IMG/VR virus record: IMGVR_UViG_3300021400_000028
Coordinates: 1-42,249 of that record
DNA from: a virus
Lineage: Duplodnaviria > Heunggongvirae > Uroviricota > Caudoviricetes
Strand: one strand, 5' to 3'
DNA length: 42,249 nt
Made by a program: the position numbers and the translations under genes. A model generated the notes under the pieces. The model saw only the letters and a program-made list of their open reading frames with translations. It ran no database searches and was not told the DNA's origin. This document shows positions 1-12,032 of the stretch, piece by piece (the stretch's first letter is position 1; every line of letters begins with the position of its first letter).

Positions 1-98
1 TGTGAATTAACTTTAGTAGTCCACAAACCAGACTTGTGTCCGTAGGGACAGTCTGTTTTTGCAAATACTCCGTCTGATATGTATTTTATCTTTGCCAT
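1..98 (-). CDS. Hypothetical early protein, partial (runs off the window start)
   Basis: ATG at 98 lies one base after the TGA stop of the upstream gene; frame MAKIKYISDGVFAKTDCPYGHKSGLW... is open to the edge. Confidence 0.55.
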   Translation of the reverse strand, partial: MAKIKYISDGVFAKTDCPYGHKSGLWTTKVNS

Positions 99-99
99 A

Positions 100-393
100 T
101 CAATCCTCCCTTATTACGGTTTTATCAAGTTCGTAAAAGTGGCGAGCAAAATTCCTAATAGCAAGACATTGCTCTCCATTCATTGAGCCAAACGCATCCA
201 ATAATTTGGTCCTCTCGTTTTTTAATTCCTTTTCGAAATCCACCTCCGACTGCTCCTGCTGGAGAGAGGTGATAATGTCATTTTTTAACTCTTGAAGAAC
301 ACTTCTTCCAACCCAAACAGAGCTACTCAATCCCAAATCTTCAAGTTTGGCATCTATAAGTGCTATCAGTTTTTCCGCGTCAATATATTTCAT
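100..393 (-). CDS. Small hypothetical phage protein (MKYIDAEKL.. type), standard code with TGA stop
   Basis: ORF track 100..471; likely start is ATG 393 because the upstream part overlaps the 444..605 gene. Confidence 0.7.
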   Translation of the reverse strand: MKYIDAEKLIALIDAKLEDLGLSSSVWVGRSVLQELKNDIITSLQQEQSEVDFEKELKNERTKLLDAFGSMNGEQCLAIRNFARHFYELDKTVIRED

Positions 394-789: not shown

Positions 790-1256
790 TTTTACCACTA
801 TAGCTTTCGCTACCAACAATAAAATTTCATTACTCCACTCATACTTACATGTTTTTGGCTACTATTTTTGTAACTGCGGGTTTTTATATTTCAGACCAAT
901 CCCGTCTTAGATTTATGGACTTTAATAGTATGTTTTGATATTGTTGTTTGTAGTCTGGGACTGTATCTTGACCGTATTGAAATCTAGCTAGATTATCCAA
1001 CTCTTTCACAAGGAACTCAATCCTTGCCACCATCTTGAAGGATAAATTTCAACTTAGGCCCCTCCTGTATCTCGTCTCTACACACTGTCTAAGGTGTTAG
1101 TCGGGCCTGGATAACATTTAAACTCAGCTATTCCCCTTGTGAGTCCTATAACATTGGTTCGGTATAAGCATATAATATCAGAGGTATTCACCCCACACTC
1201 TTACGAGCAGCGACTTTGGACATAATATTACTTAGCTTCCACCGAATTAGGGAGGT
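790..1256 (-). ncRNA. Group I intron-like ribozyme core, intergenic and apparently degenerate or repurposed
   Basis: Minus strand elements in canonical order: P AATTCGGTGGAAGC (1235-1248), Q GCTTATACCGAACCA (1155-1169), R GTGTAGAGACGAG (1071-1083), S AAGATACAGTCC (958-969). Helices: P3 CCTCC/GGAGG, P4 TTCGGT/ACCGAA, P8 TTGAAAT/ATTTCAA, P9.0 ACTAC/GTGGT, plus a TAGC-GAAA-GCTA hairpin (801-812). Confidence 0.75.
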
Positions 1257-5183: not shown

Positions 5184-6008
5184 ATGCAACATGCAGAAAT
5201 ACCAAATGTTTTAACGGAGTTAAAGTCAACAAATAACAAAACTCCATCACTTGAACCAGGAGACAAAGTTGTTTATGCTATTATAAGAATGCATATGAAT
5301 GAAACACGCACTTGTTTCCCATCTCAAGATTTAATTAAGAAGTACGCACATTGCGGACAGAAAAAAGTTGAAGATGCCATAAAACGTTTAGAAAAAGCCA
5401 AATTACTTAAAATTGGCAAAATTAAACTAGAAAATGGCAAATGGTCTAGATTATATACTATTCCCAAAACAGAATTTGATAAATCTTTTGAACGTTTTAC
5501 TCAGGATTTTCTAACAATGGACATTCCACTCCATTTAAAAGAATATATAATGGATCTACAAATATATATGTTCGTTCATCCAAATTCTAATTCTGCTGAT
5601 TTTAGCCAATCCAATCTAACGTTAGCCAAAAATACTGGATGAGATGTATCTCAAATAAATAAATTTGATAAACAATTAATTGAATTAGGAATAGAAAAAC
5701 AAGAACTATCTGGAAAGATTGATCAATCAGGATTACCTATAATGAAAAAGATTGTTAATTTAGACACAATTAATCAAGCCCAACTTTGAGTTCGAGCAGT
5801 AAACAATCAATTAAATGAAACTCAATTACAAGTTGATGAAGTAAACGATGCAGTAGATTCACTTCAAACAAAAGTGGATGATTTAACTCAAAGGGCTGCA
5901 ATACGAGATGAAATGATTGCAAAACAACAAGATGAAATTGAAAATCTTAAAAAATTACTTGTTGCTAATGGAATTGATATATCTCTTCAAAAAGAATATG
6001 AATTTTAA
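5184..6008 (+). CDS. Winged-helix (HTH_36-like) replication-initiator-like protein, 274 aa with TGA=Trp
   Basis: N-terminal VVYAIIRMH...CFPSQDLI...KVEDAIKRLEKAKLL wHTH; two in-frame TGA, after which the frame continues through a second HTH-like segment (LTLAKNTGWDVSQINK) and a coiled coil to TAA 6006-6008. Confidence 0.75.
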
Positions 6009-6080
6009 AAAAAATAACCTCCAGAGGAGCATCACACCCATCTGGAGGTCAAAAAACATAGCAAAGCTTCAGACAGCTTG

Positions 6081-6120
6081 GTGTCTTGGACTGGTTTCAT
6101 CCAATCCAAGACATTTTTTT
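6081..6120 (+). terminator. Intrinsic terminator
   Basis: TGTCTTGGA...TCCAAGACA stem followed by T7. Confidence 0.7.
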
Positions 6121-6121
6121 G

Positions 6122-6890
6122 TTTAGGCTGAGTCTTGACCTATACAATCACCATTTTCATCTCTTTGCGAGACTAGAACACATCCTTTTGGGATAGGTGA
6201 CACAGAGACGGATTCATAGGTTCCGCAACCACTACACTTAACGATATAAACTACTCCTTTCATTAGCTGTCCTTGCGAGTAAATGACATGCCTGCCAACC
6301 AGTTTAACTAATTGTTTCGCTTCACAGATTGCCTTGCGAGCTCACTGCGTCTCCATATTACAGGAGAATAACTCTGTTGTTGCTAAGTGTGCACAACACT
6401 TTTTGCTACTAAAATTCAACTTTTTGTAAAAATTAAAATTTTTGTAACAGATGACCTGATTAACCGTGTGGTTGTGCTTGAATAGAATGCAGCCTTTTGA
6501 GCTGTTTACCTATCAACACGGTTATGTTACTTGTCCGCCAAGACTTTCACTTTACTAATTGTTCGAACCTAAGATTTCTCTAATCTATAGACCGGCATGT
6601 CTATAGCACCAGCCACGGTGTAGGTCCACTAATTTTCATCATAGACGCTATAAGGATGGCTAATCCTGTTTGGCATCTAAGCAAGTATGTTTGTCCCTGT
6701 TACCAGGCAAGGAGAGATGGTCAATCCCTCCGTAACAACCTATCCACTCTGCCCGAGTGTACACCAGTCATTACTATGCATACTGTGGCTTTCTTATGAA
6801 CAGCATTTCTACTGCGCATCACCTCACTGTTAATGGTGACACTTTATCCTCTCACGAGTTTATTCTATCGACAAGAAGCCTGCCGTTACG
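6122..6890 (-). ncRNA. GOLLD-like giant structured RNA (~770 nt)
   Basis: ORF-free and richer in GC than its flanks; many hairpins including GNRA-type loops on the minus strand; two halves joined by an AT-rich linker (~6400-6445). Motif order (GATAAAGTG, ACACTCGGGCAGAGTGG, CTCAAAAGG, AAAAAGTGTT, GGAGTAGTT..AGTGGTT, CCCAAAAGG, terminal CTCAGCCT) matches my recollection of GOLLD-family sequences; not verified with a covariance model. Confidence 0.65.
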
Positions 6891-7328
6891 TGAAGACGTA
6901 AATAGAACCCCAGATTGATTTCACTCTTTCTGGGGTTTGTTGTTTTACAGGGAATAGGTTCATCACCCTGTGATGTAGTCTGAAGCCTGATCACTACTTC
7001 GGAGAGTTAGTTTAAAATGGACTCACAACCATACAACATAAAATAATAATGAAGTTGTTAATCGGTTACTCCAAGCCTAGCCGTTACTCAGAAGAAACCA
7101 CTTAAGGCTCTATTGCTGATTCACGTTACTGCAATATTACTCCAATCATGTTAGCCCGCATCATGCTTAGCGGGAGCCTTGGTTACCAAGCCCAGGATAA
7201 TGTAACTGTTGTATAGGATTCGCTACTCCTATTGGTCAGTCTCTCGTTTCCTCTTGAAACTACAAAGTCACCACAATATCTGTATTATAAGCCCAGGGTG
7301 TCAGCTAGTTAGTGTATGGCTAGCAAGC

Positions 7329-7439
7329 TTATTCCACTACATTCCCATATGTAAGCAACTGTGCTGCTTCATTAGAAGTAATAAGCCCAGAGGTGACTTC
7401 TGCACCTAAATCATCAATAAGATTTAATATCTCTTCCAT
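7329..7439 (-). CDS. Possible 36-aa peptide
   Basis: MEEILNLIDDLGAEVTSGLITSNEAAQLLTYGNVVE*; preceded by an AT-rich leader; overlaps a hairpin. Confidence 0.45.
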   Translation of the reverse strand: MEEILNLIDDLGAEVTSGLITSNEAAQLLTYGNVVE

Positions 7440-7483
7440 AGGGAATAATTTTAAATTAGAACTTTAGAAGAATATCACTTCTT

Positions 7484-7813
7484 CTAAAATTTGTTCGCTT
7501 CACGCTGGCAAATAAAGATTATTGCCTGTACCACATCAAAAGGAAGAATCTCTTTGTATGGTATAGCAATATCAATATCTACCCACTCTTCCTTCTCATT
7601 AGCTAAACAAAATGCCAACTTAGCACCTTGTTTATCTTTATAAGAAATTAGAGTCCATGAACCAACAACTAAATTATCCCTTTTGGATAGGATAATTCCA
7701 CATCTACCAAATGGATGCGATTCAACTACTACGAGTTGAGCATTACCATTTGCATAAATGCGATTGCAATTCATGATTTCACGAGCGGAACGGATGTTGA
7801 TGTTTTTGTTCAT
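7484..7813 (-). CDS. Hypothetical early protein
   Basis: 109-aa ORF with an AT-rich leader. Confidence 0.7.
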   Translation of the reverse strand: MNKNINIRSAREIMNCNRIYANGNAQLVVVESHPFGRCGIILSKRDNLVVGSWTLISYKDKQGAKLAFCLANEKEEWVDIDIAIPYKEILPFDVVQAIIFICQREANKF

Positions 7814-7853
7814 AATTTTCTTGGTTTTGGTTTAATAAAATAATAAATAAAAA

Positions 7854-7881
7854 CTCAGTCGTATCTCACGACAAGACTGAG
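7854..7881 (-). terminator. GUGA-tetraloop hairpin plus U-tract (copy 2)
   Basis: CTCAGTC-TTGTC-GTGA-GATAC-GACTGAG followed by TTTTTATTT. Confidence 0.55.
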
Positions 7882-8104
7882 AAACCGAACATGAAAAACA
7901 ACATCTGGAACCCTGAATTGATATCACTCTCATCAGGGTTAAAACTATTTCATTACATAGATTGTTCAGTACAATCTACAAAACTTTTGACTTCATATCT
8001 TGGTTTGTCGTCTATATTTCCTCAATATCACAATCCTCAATAACCATAAACATTCTCAAGGATTGGATCAGTAAGATAAAAACGACCTAAACTACTATCA
8101 ATTC

Positions 8105-8126
8105 AAAGGTCTCCGGAGAGACCTTT
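8105..8126 (-). terminator. Hairpin or terminator after 8140..8604
   Basis: AAAGGTCTC..GAGACCTTT inverted repeat. Confidence 0.55.
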
Positions 8127-8139
8127 GATTGTAATGAGT

Positions 8140-8604
8140 CTAGGATTCAAACTCAAGAACAGGATAAGTTACCATCCGCTCGACACCACCAAAGTTGCTC
8201 TTGCAGCGTTCGGTATTAACAACTTTAAGTGTCTTACCCAGAAGAGCAACACCAAGGTCATACGGATTATCAAACTTGTTGACAAAATCCGCAATCTTCG
8301 GGCTAATCAGATGTCCATCACCATTGAAGTCGGTGCGAGTGAAAGTACCCACGGCAATAGTACGATCCTTGCCGTTCACCTTAGCACCAAGATAGTACGT
8401 AACACGTACATCTTCACCTTCCTGCTGAGCCTGAGGCTGTTTGTACAACTCAACACTATCCCAAGGGAAAGTAATGGTTGCACCCATAGGCAACTGACTT
8501 ACACCAGTCAGATTAGCCTGCTTGCCTTCTTCTGCAGATACTTTTGAAACAGGACGCGCTTCCGATTCGCCGCGCATCCTAGGACGAATAAATTCGTTTG
8601 CCAT
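8140..8604 (-). CDS. GC-rich early protein, paralog of 9363..9848
   Basis: 154 aa; shares NGK, F.R..FNG, DL..L..GK and G..ER.V.Y.V patterns with 9363..9848. Confidence 0.8.
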   Translation of the reverse strand: MANEFIRPRMRGESEARPVSKVSAEEGKQANLTGVSQLPMGATITFPWDSVELYKQPQAQQEGEDVRVTYYLGAKVNGKDRTIAVGTFTRTDFNGDGHLISPKIADFVNKFDNPYDLGVALLGKTLKVVNTERCKSNFGGVERMVTYPVLEFES

Positions 8605-8793
8605 AATCTAAAAAATATTAAAAATTACACAAAATTGTGCTTCCTACAAAAAATATAAGGACTCGTTTACACCTTACTGTAGAGACTTTAAACTCACTCT
8701 ATCTTCATTACTGCATGATAGATGCCATCTCCTTTGTGCAGTAAACTAAACTGCCAAGATTGTTTTCTTTATACTCGATTCACACTTCGAGTC

Positions 8794-8848
8794 GCTGTTT
8801 CGTCTTAATTTGCAAAGACTCATCAGAGGACATCTACATCCTAACAGC
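8794..8848 (-). ncRNA. Type III hammerhead ribozyme
   Basis: Minus strand GCUGU-U^AGGAU-GUAGAU-GUCCU-CUGAUGA-GUCUU-UGCAAAUU-AAGAC-GAA-ACAGC: complete CUGANGA/GAAA core with three intact stems; GUU triplet, predicted cut between 8843 and 8842. Confidence 0.9.
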
Positions 8849-9338
8849 CTGGTTCTAAATATAAACCAGAAAGTTACCACGTCTTACACCATCGCACATA
8901 CAGTAAGTGGGACTGTATTGGTGGGCATCCTGGATTGTGCCAGGTCACTAAAATTTTAGCGTGCGAAGCCGAGACATTTCAATCGCCTATGAAATGCTAC
9001 TCTCCCAGAACCCTACTCCGACACAGTTATGCTGGTAGTTCACTGTGAAGCTGCTCCTGATTTTTTGAAATCATACACCAAGGAATAGAGCATACTCTCA
9101 GACTAGGAACAGAATCATCCTACCCTCTGCTCTATTGCGCATCCTTGGATAAAGCAAAATTATGTATACTCTTATGTGTTGGGCCAGGATAGGAGCCAAC
9201 TTTATACAGTATACCGTAGATACCGCTACGACGGAATTAAACATAAAATTTTAGCAGTATTTACTACTACTACATATTAGCATTGTCTTAGTCTCTATAT
9301 TGGAATTGTCTTAGTCTCCCTGTGTGAGAAGTAAAATA

Positions 9339-9366
9339 AAAAGTGGGGTAAACCCCCACTTTTTAT
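9339..9366 (-). terminator. Intrinsic terminator at the end of 9363..9848
   Basis: AAAAGTGGGG-TAAAC-CCCCACTTTT. Confidence 0.7.
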
Positions 9367-9848
9367 TTAACATCGAACACAGAGTATGCCACGGAGCGTT
9401 CTGCAGTTTGACCATACGGAACCTCCTTGTTGTAGATAATGTCCACGCAGACAATTTTCTTGCCTGCGTAGGCACCGCTCTTGTCAAGGACCGCATCGAG
9501 GTCACCAGCATCCCCACAGCCATTCAGCAACTGCTGGAACGGAGTGAGTTGCTTCATCTGCTCTTCGGTGAACCCGTTAAAGGGTCTCCGAAGGAAGATG
9601 CTGGCACTCACGCCACCTTCCACGGCCTTACCGTTGCGCGTGCCTTCGAAATAGGCATACTTACGGTCTTCATCGTGCTTCTTGCCGTTCCTGTCAGTCC
9701 AACCGCTCTCAATGGCGTACTTGCCAGTAAGCACAAATTCTGTGTCTTTTGCAACCTGTCCGGCGTTGCGACCGTTCACTCCCACGAGACTCCCCTCGCG
9801 AGCGAAAACACGCTCCATTGCCATATGTGTAATGAAATAGTTACGCAT
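9363..9848 (-). CDS. GC-rich early protein, paralog of 8140..8604
   Basis: 161 aa; visibly more GC-rich than the rest of the window; terminator at the stop codon. Confidence 0.8.
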   Translation of the reverse strand: MRNYFITHMAMERVFAREGSLVGVNGRNAGQVAKDTEFVLTGKYAIESGWTDRNGKKHDEDRKYAYFEGTRNGKAVEGGVSASIFLRRPFNGFTEEQMKQLTPFQQLLNGCGDAGDLDAVLDKSGAYAGKKIVCVDIIYNKEVPYGQTAERSVAYSVFDVK

Positions 9849-10098
9849 TGGTATAGTCTTAGTCTCGAAAATTTGAAAAATCAGACCCTCCCCCGGTCAA
9901 TGGATTTTCTGAATCGATTTCCCCATTCGCTAGGGCGGGGGTCTATATACATTAACACTTCTTACGTATGCATAACACACATATGTTTATAATCTATTTT
10001 GCCAACAACATGACAAATTTAACAAATGCTAACATATCTCTAATATTTTTAATTTCGCTAATTTTTATTAATTTTTTATACATCACCCGTCCTAAAAA

Positions 10099-10130
10099 TT
10101 TGGGAAATTAAATTATTTTTCGTATATTTG
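10099..10130 (+). promoter_or_regulatory. Bacteroidota primary-sigma promoter
   Basis: TTTG 10099-10102, 20-nt spacer, TATATTTG 10123-10130. Confidence 0.7.
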
Positions 10131-10167
10131 TAATGTAGGTTGAAGTTTAACTTAAAATAATAAATAT

Positions 10168-10582
10168 ATGAAAATAAACACAGAATTAATTTTTAGAGCC
10201 ATTTGCTCATCAACACACAATTTGTAAGAAATGTTATAACACATTAGATAGAAATCGAAGGTCTTATGCTGAAAGATTATATAAAAATTCTAAACATAAT
10301 TCAAAAAACTATAATGCACCATATGATTTAACAATGGAGTATATACAAGAATTATTAGAAAAACAAAACTACAAATGTGCATATTCAAGAATACCTTTTT
10401 CAAATGATAAAAAAGACAAATATACTTATCCAACAATAGATAGAATTGATTCTACAAAAGGTTATGTTAAGGGGAATGTTTGTATATGTACGCTTTTTGT
10501 TAATATAATGAAAAACAATGCAACAGTAGACCAATTCAAAGATATCATAACTAAAATATATAACAACAAAGACAACTTTTAA
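10168..10582 (+). pseudogene. HNH-type (endonuclease VII-like) homing endonuclease with a frameshifted 5' end
   Basis: Frame open from 10190 contains CKKC..., KCAYS, PTIDRIDSTKGYVKGNV and VNIMKN; the ATG behind the promoter (10168) is in another frame; first in-frame ATG is 10334. Confidence 0.65.
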
Positions 10583-10640
10583 TGAAGTTGTCTTTTTTGT
10601 ATATAACAAAAAAATCCTCAGCTATTGCTAAGGATTAAAA
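10568..10640. terminator. Pair of hairpins between convergent genes
   Basis: AAAGACAACTT..AAGTTGTCTTTTT and AATCCT..AGGATT. Confidence 0.6.
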
Positions 10641-12032
10641 TTATTTTCTAATATTAACAAAACCGTCTGGAACAATAGTGCCAACAAATGTATTACCTCA
10701 TGGAGCAGTTTTTCCAGAAATATTTGTATATGGAAAAGTAGTTTCCATTGTTCATGGTTTTCCTCCAATTAACGGTCCGACTTCAAAATTGGCAATTTTA
10801 CTATCAATTGCTTTTGTAATAGAATTTTTAGTAAGTTTATCTATAATATTATCAGCATATCTTGGAATTTCTACAAAATCAACATATGGCTCTCCATTGA
10901 TAACTGTAGATACATCTTTCACACCTGTACGATATATGTTTAATGGTCTATCTAATCACTTTGTTGTTTTACCAAGTATTGTCTTAGACTTATTACCCAT
11001 ATTACTTCAATATCCTTTATCATACATATAAGTACGTAATTTTTGTATTCTATCTCGTCATGTATCTGTACCAATATGTCTTTTTAATCGTTGATTAAGT
11101 CTATCAGAAATTACTCTATCACCAGAACGTTCAAATGGGTTCAAATCTCAAACATCCTTCATGTAGATATCTCCGTATTTATATAAATCTGTACCGGTAT
11201 TAATTTGATCAATAGGAAAATGAGCAACGTCATGTAAACCACCATGTGCGTGTGCTAAATAATCGCGTTTATTATCTATAAATACATGTGGATCATTAAT
11301 CTTCATCCCTAAAAATTTATCAATATTATAAGAATAAGTTCCATCTGCATTTTTAACATAAATCCCGTTTTTTGGAGTTTGTCCTGTGTATATAGCAAAA
11401 GCGTCTTCTCTTGCCAGTTTCATCATTTTTTGTTGATTTGGACGTGATTGTAATACACTTTTTATAGTTTCATCTTCTTTACGTGTCCCATTTCATACAG
11501 GTTTGTTATATTTTTTTTCTAGAAACATACTTTTTACAAACTCCTTACCACGACCAATTGGATCATCATAGCCATATGGAAATATTGTATTATAAGCGTG
11601 ATATCCACGATACGCTTTATTACCAATTTTTGCGGCTATTCTAACTGCGTCTCCAGCACCAATTAAATCCATACTATCTCCTAATCCAGATAATATTGCT
11701 TTACCATAATCGCCATTTTTTGTTAAACGAATTGTTTTAGATATACCATTATCTGTAGTAAGATTTCGTATTCCATCTGCAGTACCAACTATGTCTAATA
11801 TTCTCATTGCGGCAGGATTAGTAAAAACATACGGTGATAACGATACCGCTGTTGTAGCGAGTGTTGCAATTCCACGATCTTTATATATTTCATCTCTTTT
11901 TTCTTGTGTATCGGCAGCATTTGCTTGTTCTATGGTAGAATTTAAAATTCTTTCTCCAGCAGACTCTTCGCTTTGTGGTACATACTTACTAGATCAAGAA
12001 TTTAAACGTTGTAATCATTTTGGTATACCCAT
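10641..12032 (-). CDS. Modular polymorphic or cargo-like protein, 463 aa (TGA=Trp)
   Basis: One frame joins ORFs 11493..11807 and 11148..11426 through TGA only; Gly/Ala-rich helical N-half; C-terminal domain with HGG...YMKDVWDLNPF...EVGPLIGGKPW. Confidence 0.75.

Follow-up and report, generated by a model that had tools for sequence, protein, structure and literature searches.

A large RNA gene in a recoded crAss-like phage

What occupies the minus strand at 6122–6890, a stretch that a preliminary description had read as a GOLLD-like giant RNA with two structured halves and an A+T-rich linker, converging on the Rep island of a recoded crAss-like phage and lacking a neighbouring tRNA? The window analysed here covers the initial 42,249 nt of an IMG/VR virus record that is 170,249 nt long and has direct terminal repeats, window 1–107 being an exact copy of genome 170143–170249. 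When TGA was read as sense, gene fragments merged into long genes, including those for the terminase large subunit and the portal, and ORFs of 100 codons or more added up to 18,344 codons, almost twice the 9,534 obtained otherwise. Terminase large subunit and portal belong to crAss-type PHROG families, and the terminase was 27–46% identical by tblastn to those of crAss-like phages of Bacteroides, Flavobacterium and human faeces. The gain in ORF length and the crAss-like terminase and portal show that the carrier was correctly described as a recoded crAss-like phage. The locus thus has the phage location of GOLLD, in a 170-kb virus genome with terminal repeats.

Positions 6009–10640 contain no long ORF under any code and have a G+C content of 0.36–0.45, compared with about 0.31 for the genome. 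The RNA gene at the left of this region, on the minus strand, converges as described on a plus-strand Rep-like gene at 5184–6008 with matches to HTH_36 and replication-initiator PHROGs, and terminator hairpins lie between the two. Blastn similarity to relatives begins at 6886 and ends at 6126 or 6118, with no similarity in the flanks, in agreement with the limits first drawn. The layout of the RNA is as follows.

6126–6886, minus strand: entire GOLLD-like RNA, with a conserved core of 761 nt (blastn and nhmmer homology limits, fold z score)
6522–6886, minus strand: 5′ domain, a branch-specific fold of about a dozen helices (RNAalifold)
6464–6521, minus strand: hairpin with a UCAAAAG loop, the last before the linker, Rfam GOLLD model positions 1–62 (cmscan alignment)
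6390–6462, minus strand: variable A+T-rich linker without a tRNA, 72 nt, 75% A+T
6126–6389, minus strand: conserved GOLLD 3′ domain (RF02032 alignment)

The gene at 6126–6886 is that of a non-coding RNA. The longest stop-free run is 72 codons in code 11 and 128 codons with TGA read through; in comparison with the 14 nearest relatives, 141 of 151 indels have a length not divisible by three, and the mismatches against the same relatives are spread evenly over codon positions (495/563/518) with no period of three. The earlier statement that no credible ORF is present therefore stands. The 761 nt fold with z = −3.78 and none of 20 shuffles folded as well. The linker, approximately 6390–6462 and 75% A+T, is not significantly structured (z = −1.25), so that the picture of two structured halves and an A+T-rich linker also held. 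Homologous RNAs span approximately 737–887 nt, with linkers of 53–137 nt that are about 70% A+T. Two domains, a variable linker and a total of about 0.8 kb are the layout of GOLLD.

Match to the Rfam GOLLD family

At gathering thresholds no Rfam family was matched in the whole window, and GOLLD surfaced only with E-value reporting. The covariance-model comparison that had been proposed as a check then gave a full-length match, in which all model positions 1–416 of RF02032 were aligned to 6125–6521 of the minus strand with 74 bits and E 1.3e-18, a score that is half the gathering cut-off of 150 bits. A search of 14 control genomes for the same family gave no match in any of them. Neither ROOL nor another large-RNA family was matched at E values up to 10, and readings of the locus as ROOL, OLE or an intron were set aside for want of Rfam support.

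A motif taken from the window's RNA, CUCGCAAGG...CUCGCAAGG...GAGUA (two loops and GAGUA at set spacings), retrieved 103 IMG/VR loci. When 49 of the records were searched with Rfam, GOLLD was found in 48, in 41 of them above the cut-off, which indicates that the window's RNA carries the signature motifs of the GOLLD 3′ domain. Canonical IMG/VR examples score 124–224 bits. The lowest-scoring record retrieved by the motif (L018, 90 bits) was the sole one with blastn similarity to the window.

Structure of the 3′ domain

The Rfam consensus structure was transferred onto the alignments of homologs through the row of the window's RNA alone. In that row 79 of the 92 model pairs are occupied, and 70 of the 79 are canonical. 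On a MAFFT alignment of 95 sequences, 78% of the transferred pairs were canonical compared with 38–46% when the partners were slid, and 61 of 79 pairs were compensatory. On a diverse subset of 28 sequences from the branch alignment, termed A2, 78.5% were paired compared with 60.2% in shuffled alignments (none of 500 as high) and 36–43% when slid; 60 of 79 pairs were compensatory, 12 of 14 helices were supported and the covariation score was 0.553, against 0.19 for shuffled and approximately 0.10 for slid partners. Covariation among the homologs therefore follows the Rfam GOLLD helices, and the conserved 3′ structure of the family is present. The hairpin with the UCAAAAG loop (helices 1–2) was 77–84% paired with 15 of 21 pairs compensatory, and the domain at 6126–6389 has hairpins with CGCAAG loops. 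Three further elements are placed as follows.

6381–6389 with 6235–6243, minus strand: long-range helix of the 3′ domain
6372–6377 with 6202–6207 (6202–6377 overall), minus strand: pseudoknot crossing the long-range helix
6126–6140, minus strand: terminal hairpin of the 3′ domain

Two of the 14 Rfam helices had no support as aligned in A2. De novo folding with RNAalifold replaced them by a shifted helix, 6300–6308 with 6262–6270, which is partly supported, being 87% canonical in 95 sequences and 63% paired in A2. The three-way topology is retained, as the shifted helix surrounds the same pair of hairpins. The de novo fold also revealed the pseudoknot, which was 100% paired in 28 sequences with five of its six pairs compensatory. 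The Rfam consensus at the corresponding model positions of the cmscan alignment, GgugaC and GucacU, is complementary, which indicates that canonical GOLLD has the same tertiary pairing with a different sequence. The pseudoknotted, ‘ornate’ 3′ domain of GOLLD is thus found in the window's RNA. Co-varying self-complementary loops, a sign of symmetric kissing contacts, were also sought; all that was found was GUAC and AGCU inside stems, which are uninformative and were rejected as such a sign.

Structure of the 5′ domain

The following hairpins belong to this domain.

6869–6885, minus strand: P1 hairpin
6745–6759, minus strand: hairpin with a CGGGCAGA loop, inside helix 6732–6774
6691–6710, minus strand: CUUG-N4-GUAA-N4-GACA hairpin
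6573–6580, minus strand: hairpin with an invariant GAAA tetraloop

RNAalifold on 95 sequences gave 83 pairs of which 91% were canonical. On A2, 84.5% were paired compared with 64.1% in shuffled alignments (0 of 500 as high) and 38–48% when slid, and 63 of 83 pairs were compensatory, the fold having been derived from the same sequences on which its pairing was scored. The CGGGCAGA and CUUG-N4-GUAA-N4-GACA motifs were present in 95 of 95 branch members and in none of 102 canonical GOLLD loci, and comparison of the domain with these 102 loci gave no nhmmer match and no common motif. The 5′ region of GOLLD has been described as variable and poorly conserved in the family, and env-38 has a conserved GAAA loop, L11a, in its 5′ cap (bioRxiv 10.1101/2024.12.08.627333). 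The GAAA tetraloop at 6573–6580 recalls L11a and may serve as a lead. With a separate 5′ domain of this kind, the influence of cap domains on cage geometry could readily be tested.

A divergent branch of GOLLD

With motifs common to the window and L018, 17 related viral contigs were found; of 29 loci retrieved with the pattern TCGGGCAGA...CTCAAAAGG, 12 were chance matches. The 5′-domain motif TCGGGCAGA-N33-41-CUUG-N4-GURA-N4-GACA was then found in 29 viral loci, 6 genome contigs and at least 119 metagenome contigs. Five genome contigs with the 5′-domain motif are genuine, all from rumen or gut MAGs and three of them Prevotellaceae RUGs. Matches of this motif in L140, L156 (Shewanella) and L195 were discarded as due to chance. 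After removal of duplicates there were at least 94 distinct full-length homologs, all of which align end to end with the family profile; among the matches listed, the 94 distinct homologs were 49–77% identical to the window's RNA.

All branch members scored with Rfam GOLLD gave 50–103 bits and none reached 150, so that routine annotation misses the branch. A profile of the branch reached none of the 102 canonical GOLLD loci with nhmmer, its sole match being L018, a branch member. Blastn against 50,697 GenBank phage records gave no match for window 6000–10700 or for three other branch members. A literature search of limited scope found no paper that treats GOLLD and crAss-like phages together, which is not proof of novelty.

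The window's RNA is therefore a member of a large divergent branch, which comprises at least 95 distinct sequences and has a 5′ domain of its own. The family call made in the preliminary description is supported by the full-length Rfam match and by covariation among homologs along the Rfam structure. With a score under the gathering cut-off, the RNA belongs to a divergent branch rather than being a routine member, and its 5′ fold and motifs are the branch's own and absent from the 102 canonical loci. The fallback of a new large RNA is not needed. Through the branch the family gains at least 95 diverse sequences that escape standard annotation.

tRNA genes near the RNA and its homologs

No tRNA was found by ARAGORN anywhere in the window's 42 kb, or by Rfam in 5500–11000 at E values up to 10. 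The seven tRNAs of the genome lie at 142354–153695 of the 170 kb, the nearest approximately 23 kb from the RNA across the genome ends. The adjacent or internal tRNA that is frequent, although not obligatory, in GOLLD is thus missing here, as had been noted at the outset. This absence is real but ordinary for the branch: of the 27 homologs whose loci extend at least 2 kb to either side, 12 have a tRNA closer than 2 kb, usually one on the same strand, some members sit within arrays of 10–13 tRNAs and others have no tRNA within 6–7 kb on both sides. A tRNA-Ile lies inside the linker in two of 94 homologs, the close relatives L159 (63 bits) and L213, as seen in A2; a tRNA in the linker is a trait reported for GOLLD (bioRxiv 10.1101/2024.12.08.627333).

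The absence of a tRNA from the window argues that the RNA has no need of a linked tRNA, and the existence of relatives with a linker tRNA, with nearby arrays or with neither argues against an obligatory covalent tRNA cargo. This variation among close relatives amounts to a natural experiment.

Carriers of the branch and recombination within the gene

A relative of the window phage's crAss-like terminase was encoded in 21 of the 34 homolog records tested, among them all eight that are at least 90% complete. The terminase matches of highest identity (38–44%) and several weaker ones (27–29%) contain 4–25 in-frame TAG codons, which identifies their phages as TAG-recoded. Other carriers use the standard code and the window's phage is the TGA-recoded case; the branch links the GOLLD family to crAss-like phages that between them use three genetic codes.

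The GOLLD RNAs most similar to that of the window among viral records (L117 and L105, 70–74%) are carried by phages with terminases only 24–25% identical, and the phages with the closest terminases among viral records carry more distant GOLLD RNAs. L181, a metagenome contig from a near-identical strain, matches window 6890–9941 with 95.4% identity. Where it continues into the RNA gene (8–662 aligned with window 6283–6889) it is identical over 6635–6889 and approximately 62% identical over 6283–6634, many of the changes in the latter part being paired. This drop in identity near 6634 indicates a recombination breakpoint inside the RNA gene.

Expression signals and flanking elements

Three hairpins lie close to the ends of the RNA.

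6004–6051, minus strand: intrinsic terminator, hairpin 6015–6051 followed by a U run (UUAUUUUUUUU), approximately 75 nt past the conserved 3′ end
6082–6120, plus strand: terminator of the convergent Rep-like gene, hairpin 6082–6113 followed by T7 (sequence and fold)
6906–6937, minus strand: hairpin with a trailing U-rich tract, 20 nt upstream of GOLLD (−18.3 kcal/mol, z = −3.1)

The minus strand of 6000–6125 folds with −47.7 kcal/mol and z = −6.6, and the hairpin at 6082–6113 can also form in the minus-strand RNA just past GOLLD. The hairpin at 6906–6937 may be a terminator of upstream transcription, an attenuator or a processing site; it occupies the place of the conserved ribozyme-like leader of the nearest relatives, and no promoter was found between it and the RNA. 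A Bacteroidota-type promoter (TTTG-N17-23-TAnnTTTG) is absent just upstream of GOLLD, the nearest on the minus strand being at 10570–10537, and TAnnTTTG showed no clustering at a fixed distance upstream of GOLLD among 91 homologs. A shared ACAACAAACC at −52 was considered as a phage promoter and rejected since the genome has only three copies.

In the nearest relatives a conserved leader of approximately 75 nt abuts the GOLLD 5′ end (L226:2747–2815, with the same placement in L117, L251, L197, L183, L170, L198 and L163). This leader can adopt an HDV-like double-pseudoknot fold, with a putative P1 of CUCCCA/UGGGAG, P2 of ACAACAA/UUGUUGU co-varying to GUAACA/UGUUAC, P3 of ACC/GGU around UCUACGU and a P4 hairpin with UUCG. 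Its score against the Rfam F. prausnitzii HDV ribozyme was no higher than 12.6 bits (E 5.7). In the window this leader has been lost except for ACAACAAAC at −52.

A type III hammerhead candidate with an intact CUGAUGA and GAAA core was found at 8792–8850 on the same strand, approximately 1.9 kb upstream of GOLLD, with 37 bits and E 1e-5 against a cut-off of 48.5. Several relatives have a similar copy that is likewise upstream of GOLLD and shares its strand (L226:837–895, L181:2554–2612, L183:3258–3337 and L170:42–121), and in L163 a twister-P1-like match (39.9 bits) lies approximately 300 nt upstream of its GOLLD.

The island of approximately 3.7 kb that adjoins GOLLD, 6900–10640, has a raised G+C content, and its eight ORFs gave no Pfam match; much of it may be non-coding RNA or orphan small genes. 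An element of approximately 190 nt at about 7045–7235 on the minus strand shows compensatory changes and GGCUUGGUAACC-type hairpins. It is common to L183 (88%), L182, L275, L159 and L240, always near GOLLD but on a varying side, and matches no Rfam family; it looks like a second conserved small RNA travelling with GOLLD. Positions 7806–8485 are 81% identical to the metagenome contig L174.

Discussion

The GOLLD reading of 6126–6886 on the minus strand is supported, and taken as a whole, with the cage role set out below, it is probably right. GOLLD is among the very few natural RNAs shown to build a protein-free cage. By cryo-EM, GOLLD env-38 is a 14-mer cage with D7 symmetry in which the caps are built from the 5′ domains, which also determine the size of the ring (bioRxiv 10.1101/2024.12.08.627333). 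The window's RNA resembles RF02032 and env-38 in its length class of approximately 0.75–0.9 kb, in having a variable linker between a 5′ domain and a conserved 3′ domain, and in the 3′ helices, the pseudoknot, the CGCAAG-type loops and the phage location; linker tRNAs or nearby tRNA arrays in some members are a further likeness to RF02032. It differs from RF02032 in the scores of its branch (50–103 bits compared with 124–224 for canonical members), in the 5′ motifs and fold, and in that branch carriers are crAss-like and most well-flanked members have no tRNA within 2 kb. ROOL, another large phage RNA, is frequently located close to tRNAs, builds a cage from RNA alone and is represented by many rumen sequences (bioRxiv 10.1101/2024.12.08.627333). 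Both ROOL and the window's RNA are large phage RNAs with rumen sequences; however, the two halves of ROOL are intertwined, whereas the window's RNA has two separate domains and no Rfam match to ROOL.

The alternatives differ in how much of the GOLLD likeness they accept. The RNA might be a chimeric relative, with a GOLLD-type 3′ domain joined to an unrelated 5′ domain, that assembles or works differently, that is with another copy number or without a closed cage. This would fit 5′ motifs that all 95 branch members and none of the 102 canonical loci possess, the lack of nhmmer similarity to those loci, the exchange of parts seen at the breakpoint inside the gene in L181 and, given that the env-38 5′ domains form caps and set ring size (bioRxiv 10.1101/2024.12.08.627333), a consequence for assembly. 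However, GOLLD has already been described as variable in its 5′ region (bioRxiv 10.1101/2024.12.08.627333), and total length, linker position and an invariant 5′ GAAA tetraloop comparable to L11a of env-38 are retained, which leaves the chimera unlikely. That the locus belongs to an unrelated new family of large RNAs, alike to GOLLD by chance or convergence, is highly improbable: such a family would explain a score under the gathering cut-off and the missing primary-sequence link by nhmmer, but not a match of E 1e-18 with full model coverage, nor the finding of GOLLD in 48 of 49 records retrieved with the RNA's own motif, nor independent covariation along the Rfam helices together with a shared pseudoknot.

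There is next to no chance that the region is protein-coding under a TGA-reading code. The frame in question, open for 128 codons at 6123–6509 of the minus strand, lies on the RNA's own strand in a genome that reads TGA as sense. It is nevertheless broken by nearly all of the indels against near relatives (141 of 151), its mismatches have no period of three, it is not kept open among homologs in phages of other codes and its substitutions are compensatory for base pairing.

Returning to the GOLLD reading, transcription would proceed on the minus strand and end at the intrinsic terminator 6051–6004. By homology with env-38, the RNA would then self-assemble without protein into a multimeric hollow cage, in which the 3′ domains may provide the ring and equatorial contacts and the 5′ domains the caps, with the linker facing the lumen. 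As most branch members, including that of the window, have neither a linker tRNA nor a nearby one, we infer that the cage itself, rather than a covalently attached tRNA, would be the working unit. It might act during infection on translation or on the RNA machinery.

A more far-reaching proposal, which we regard as possible but doubtful, is that crAss-like phages have their own GOLLD lineage, in which the 5′ cap domain gives a different cage geometry or copy number and the gene is a mobile, ribozyme-processed module independent of tRNAs, located within RNA-rich islands that self-cleaving ribozymes process. On this proposal, recombination within the gene would swap it between phages, its 5′ end would be joined to an HDV-like ribozyme in the nearest relatives, and the hammerhead or twister candidates are those located upstream on the same strand. 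If true, it would separate the cage role from tRNA delivery and would place a large RNA assembly in relatives of the most abundant gut phages.

Other features of the genome and of homolog records

None of the genome's seven tRNAs has a TCA anticodon although late genes read TGA through, and one of the tRNAs was called with an unusual anticodon of four bases (taag). A tRNA with a CTA anticodon, named ‘Pyl’ by ARAGORN, recurs in at least eight homolog loci (L201, L244, L171, L216, L153, L208, L147 and L148), where it lies 3–7 kb upstream of GOLLD on the opposite strand; in the four of these records that could be checked the terminase contains in-frame TAG codons. Window 944–1092, approximately 150 nt inside a region earlier called ‘group I-like’, has a 77% identical copy at genome 168075–168223, and similar stretches occur in L238, L135 and L237.
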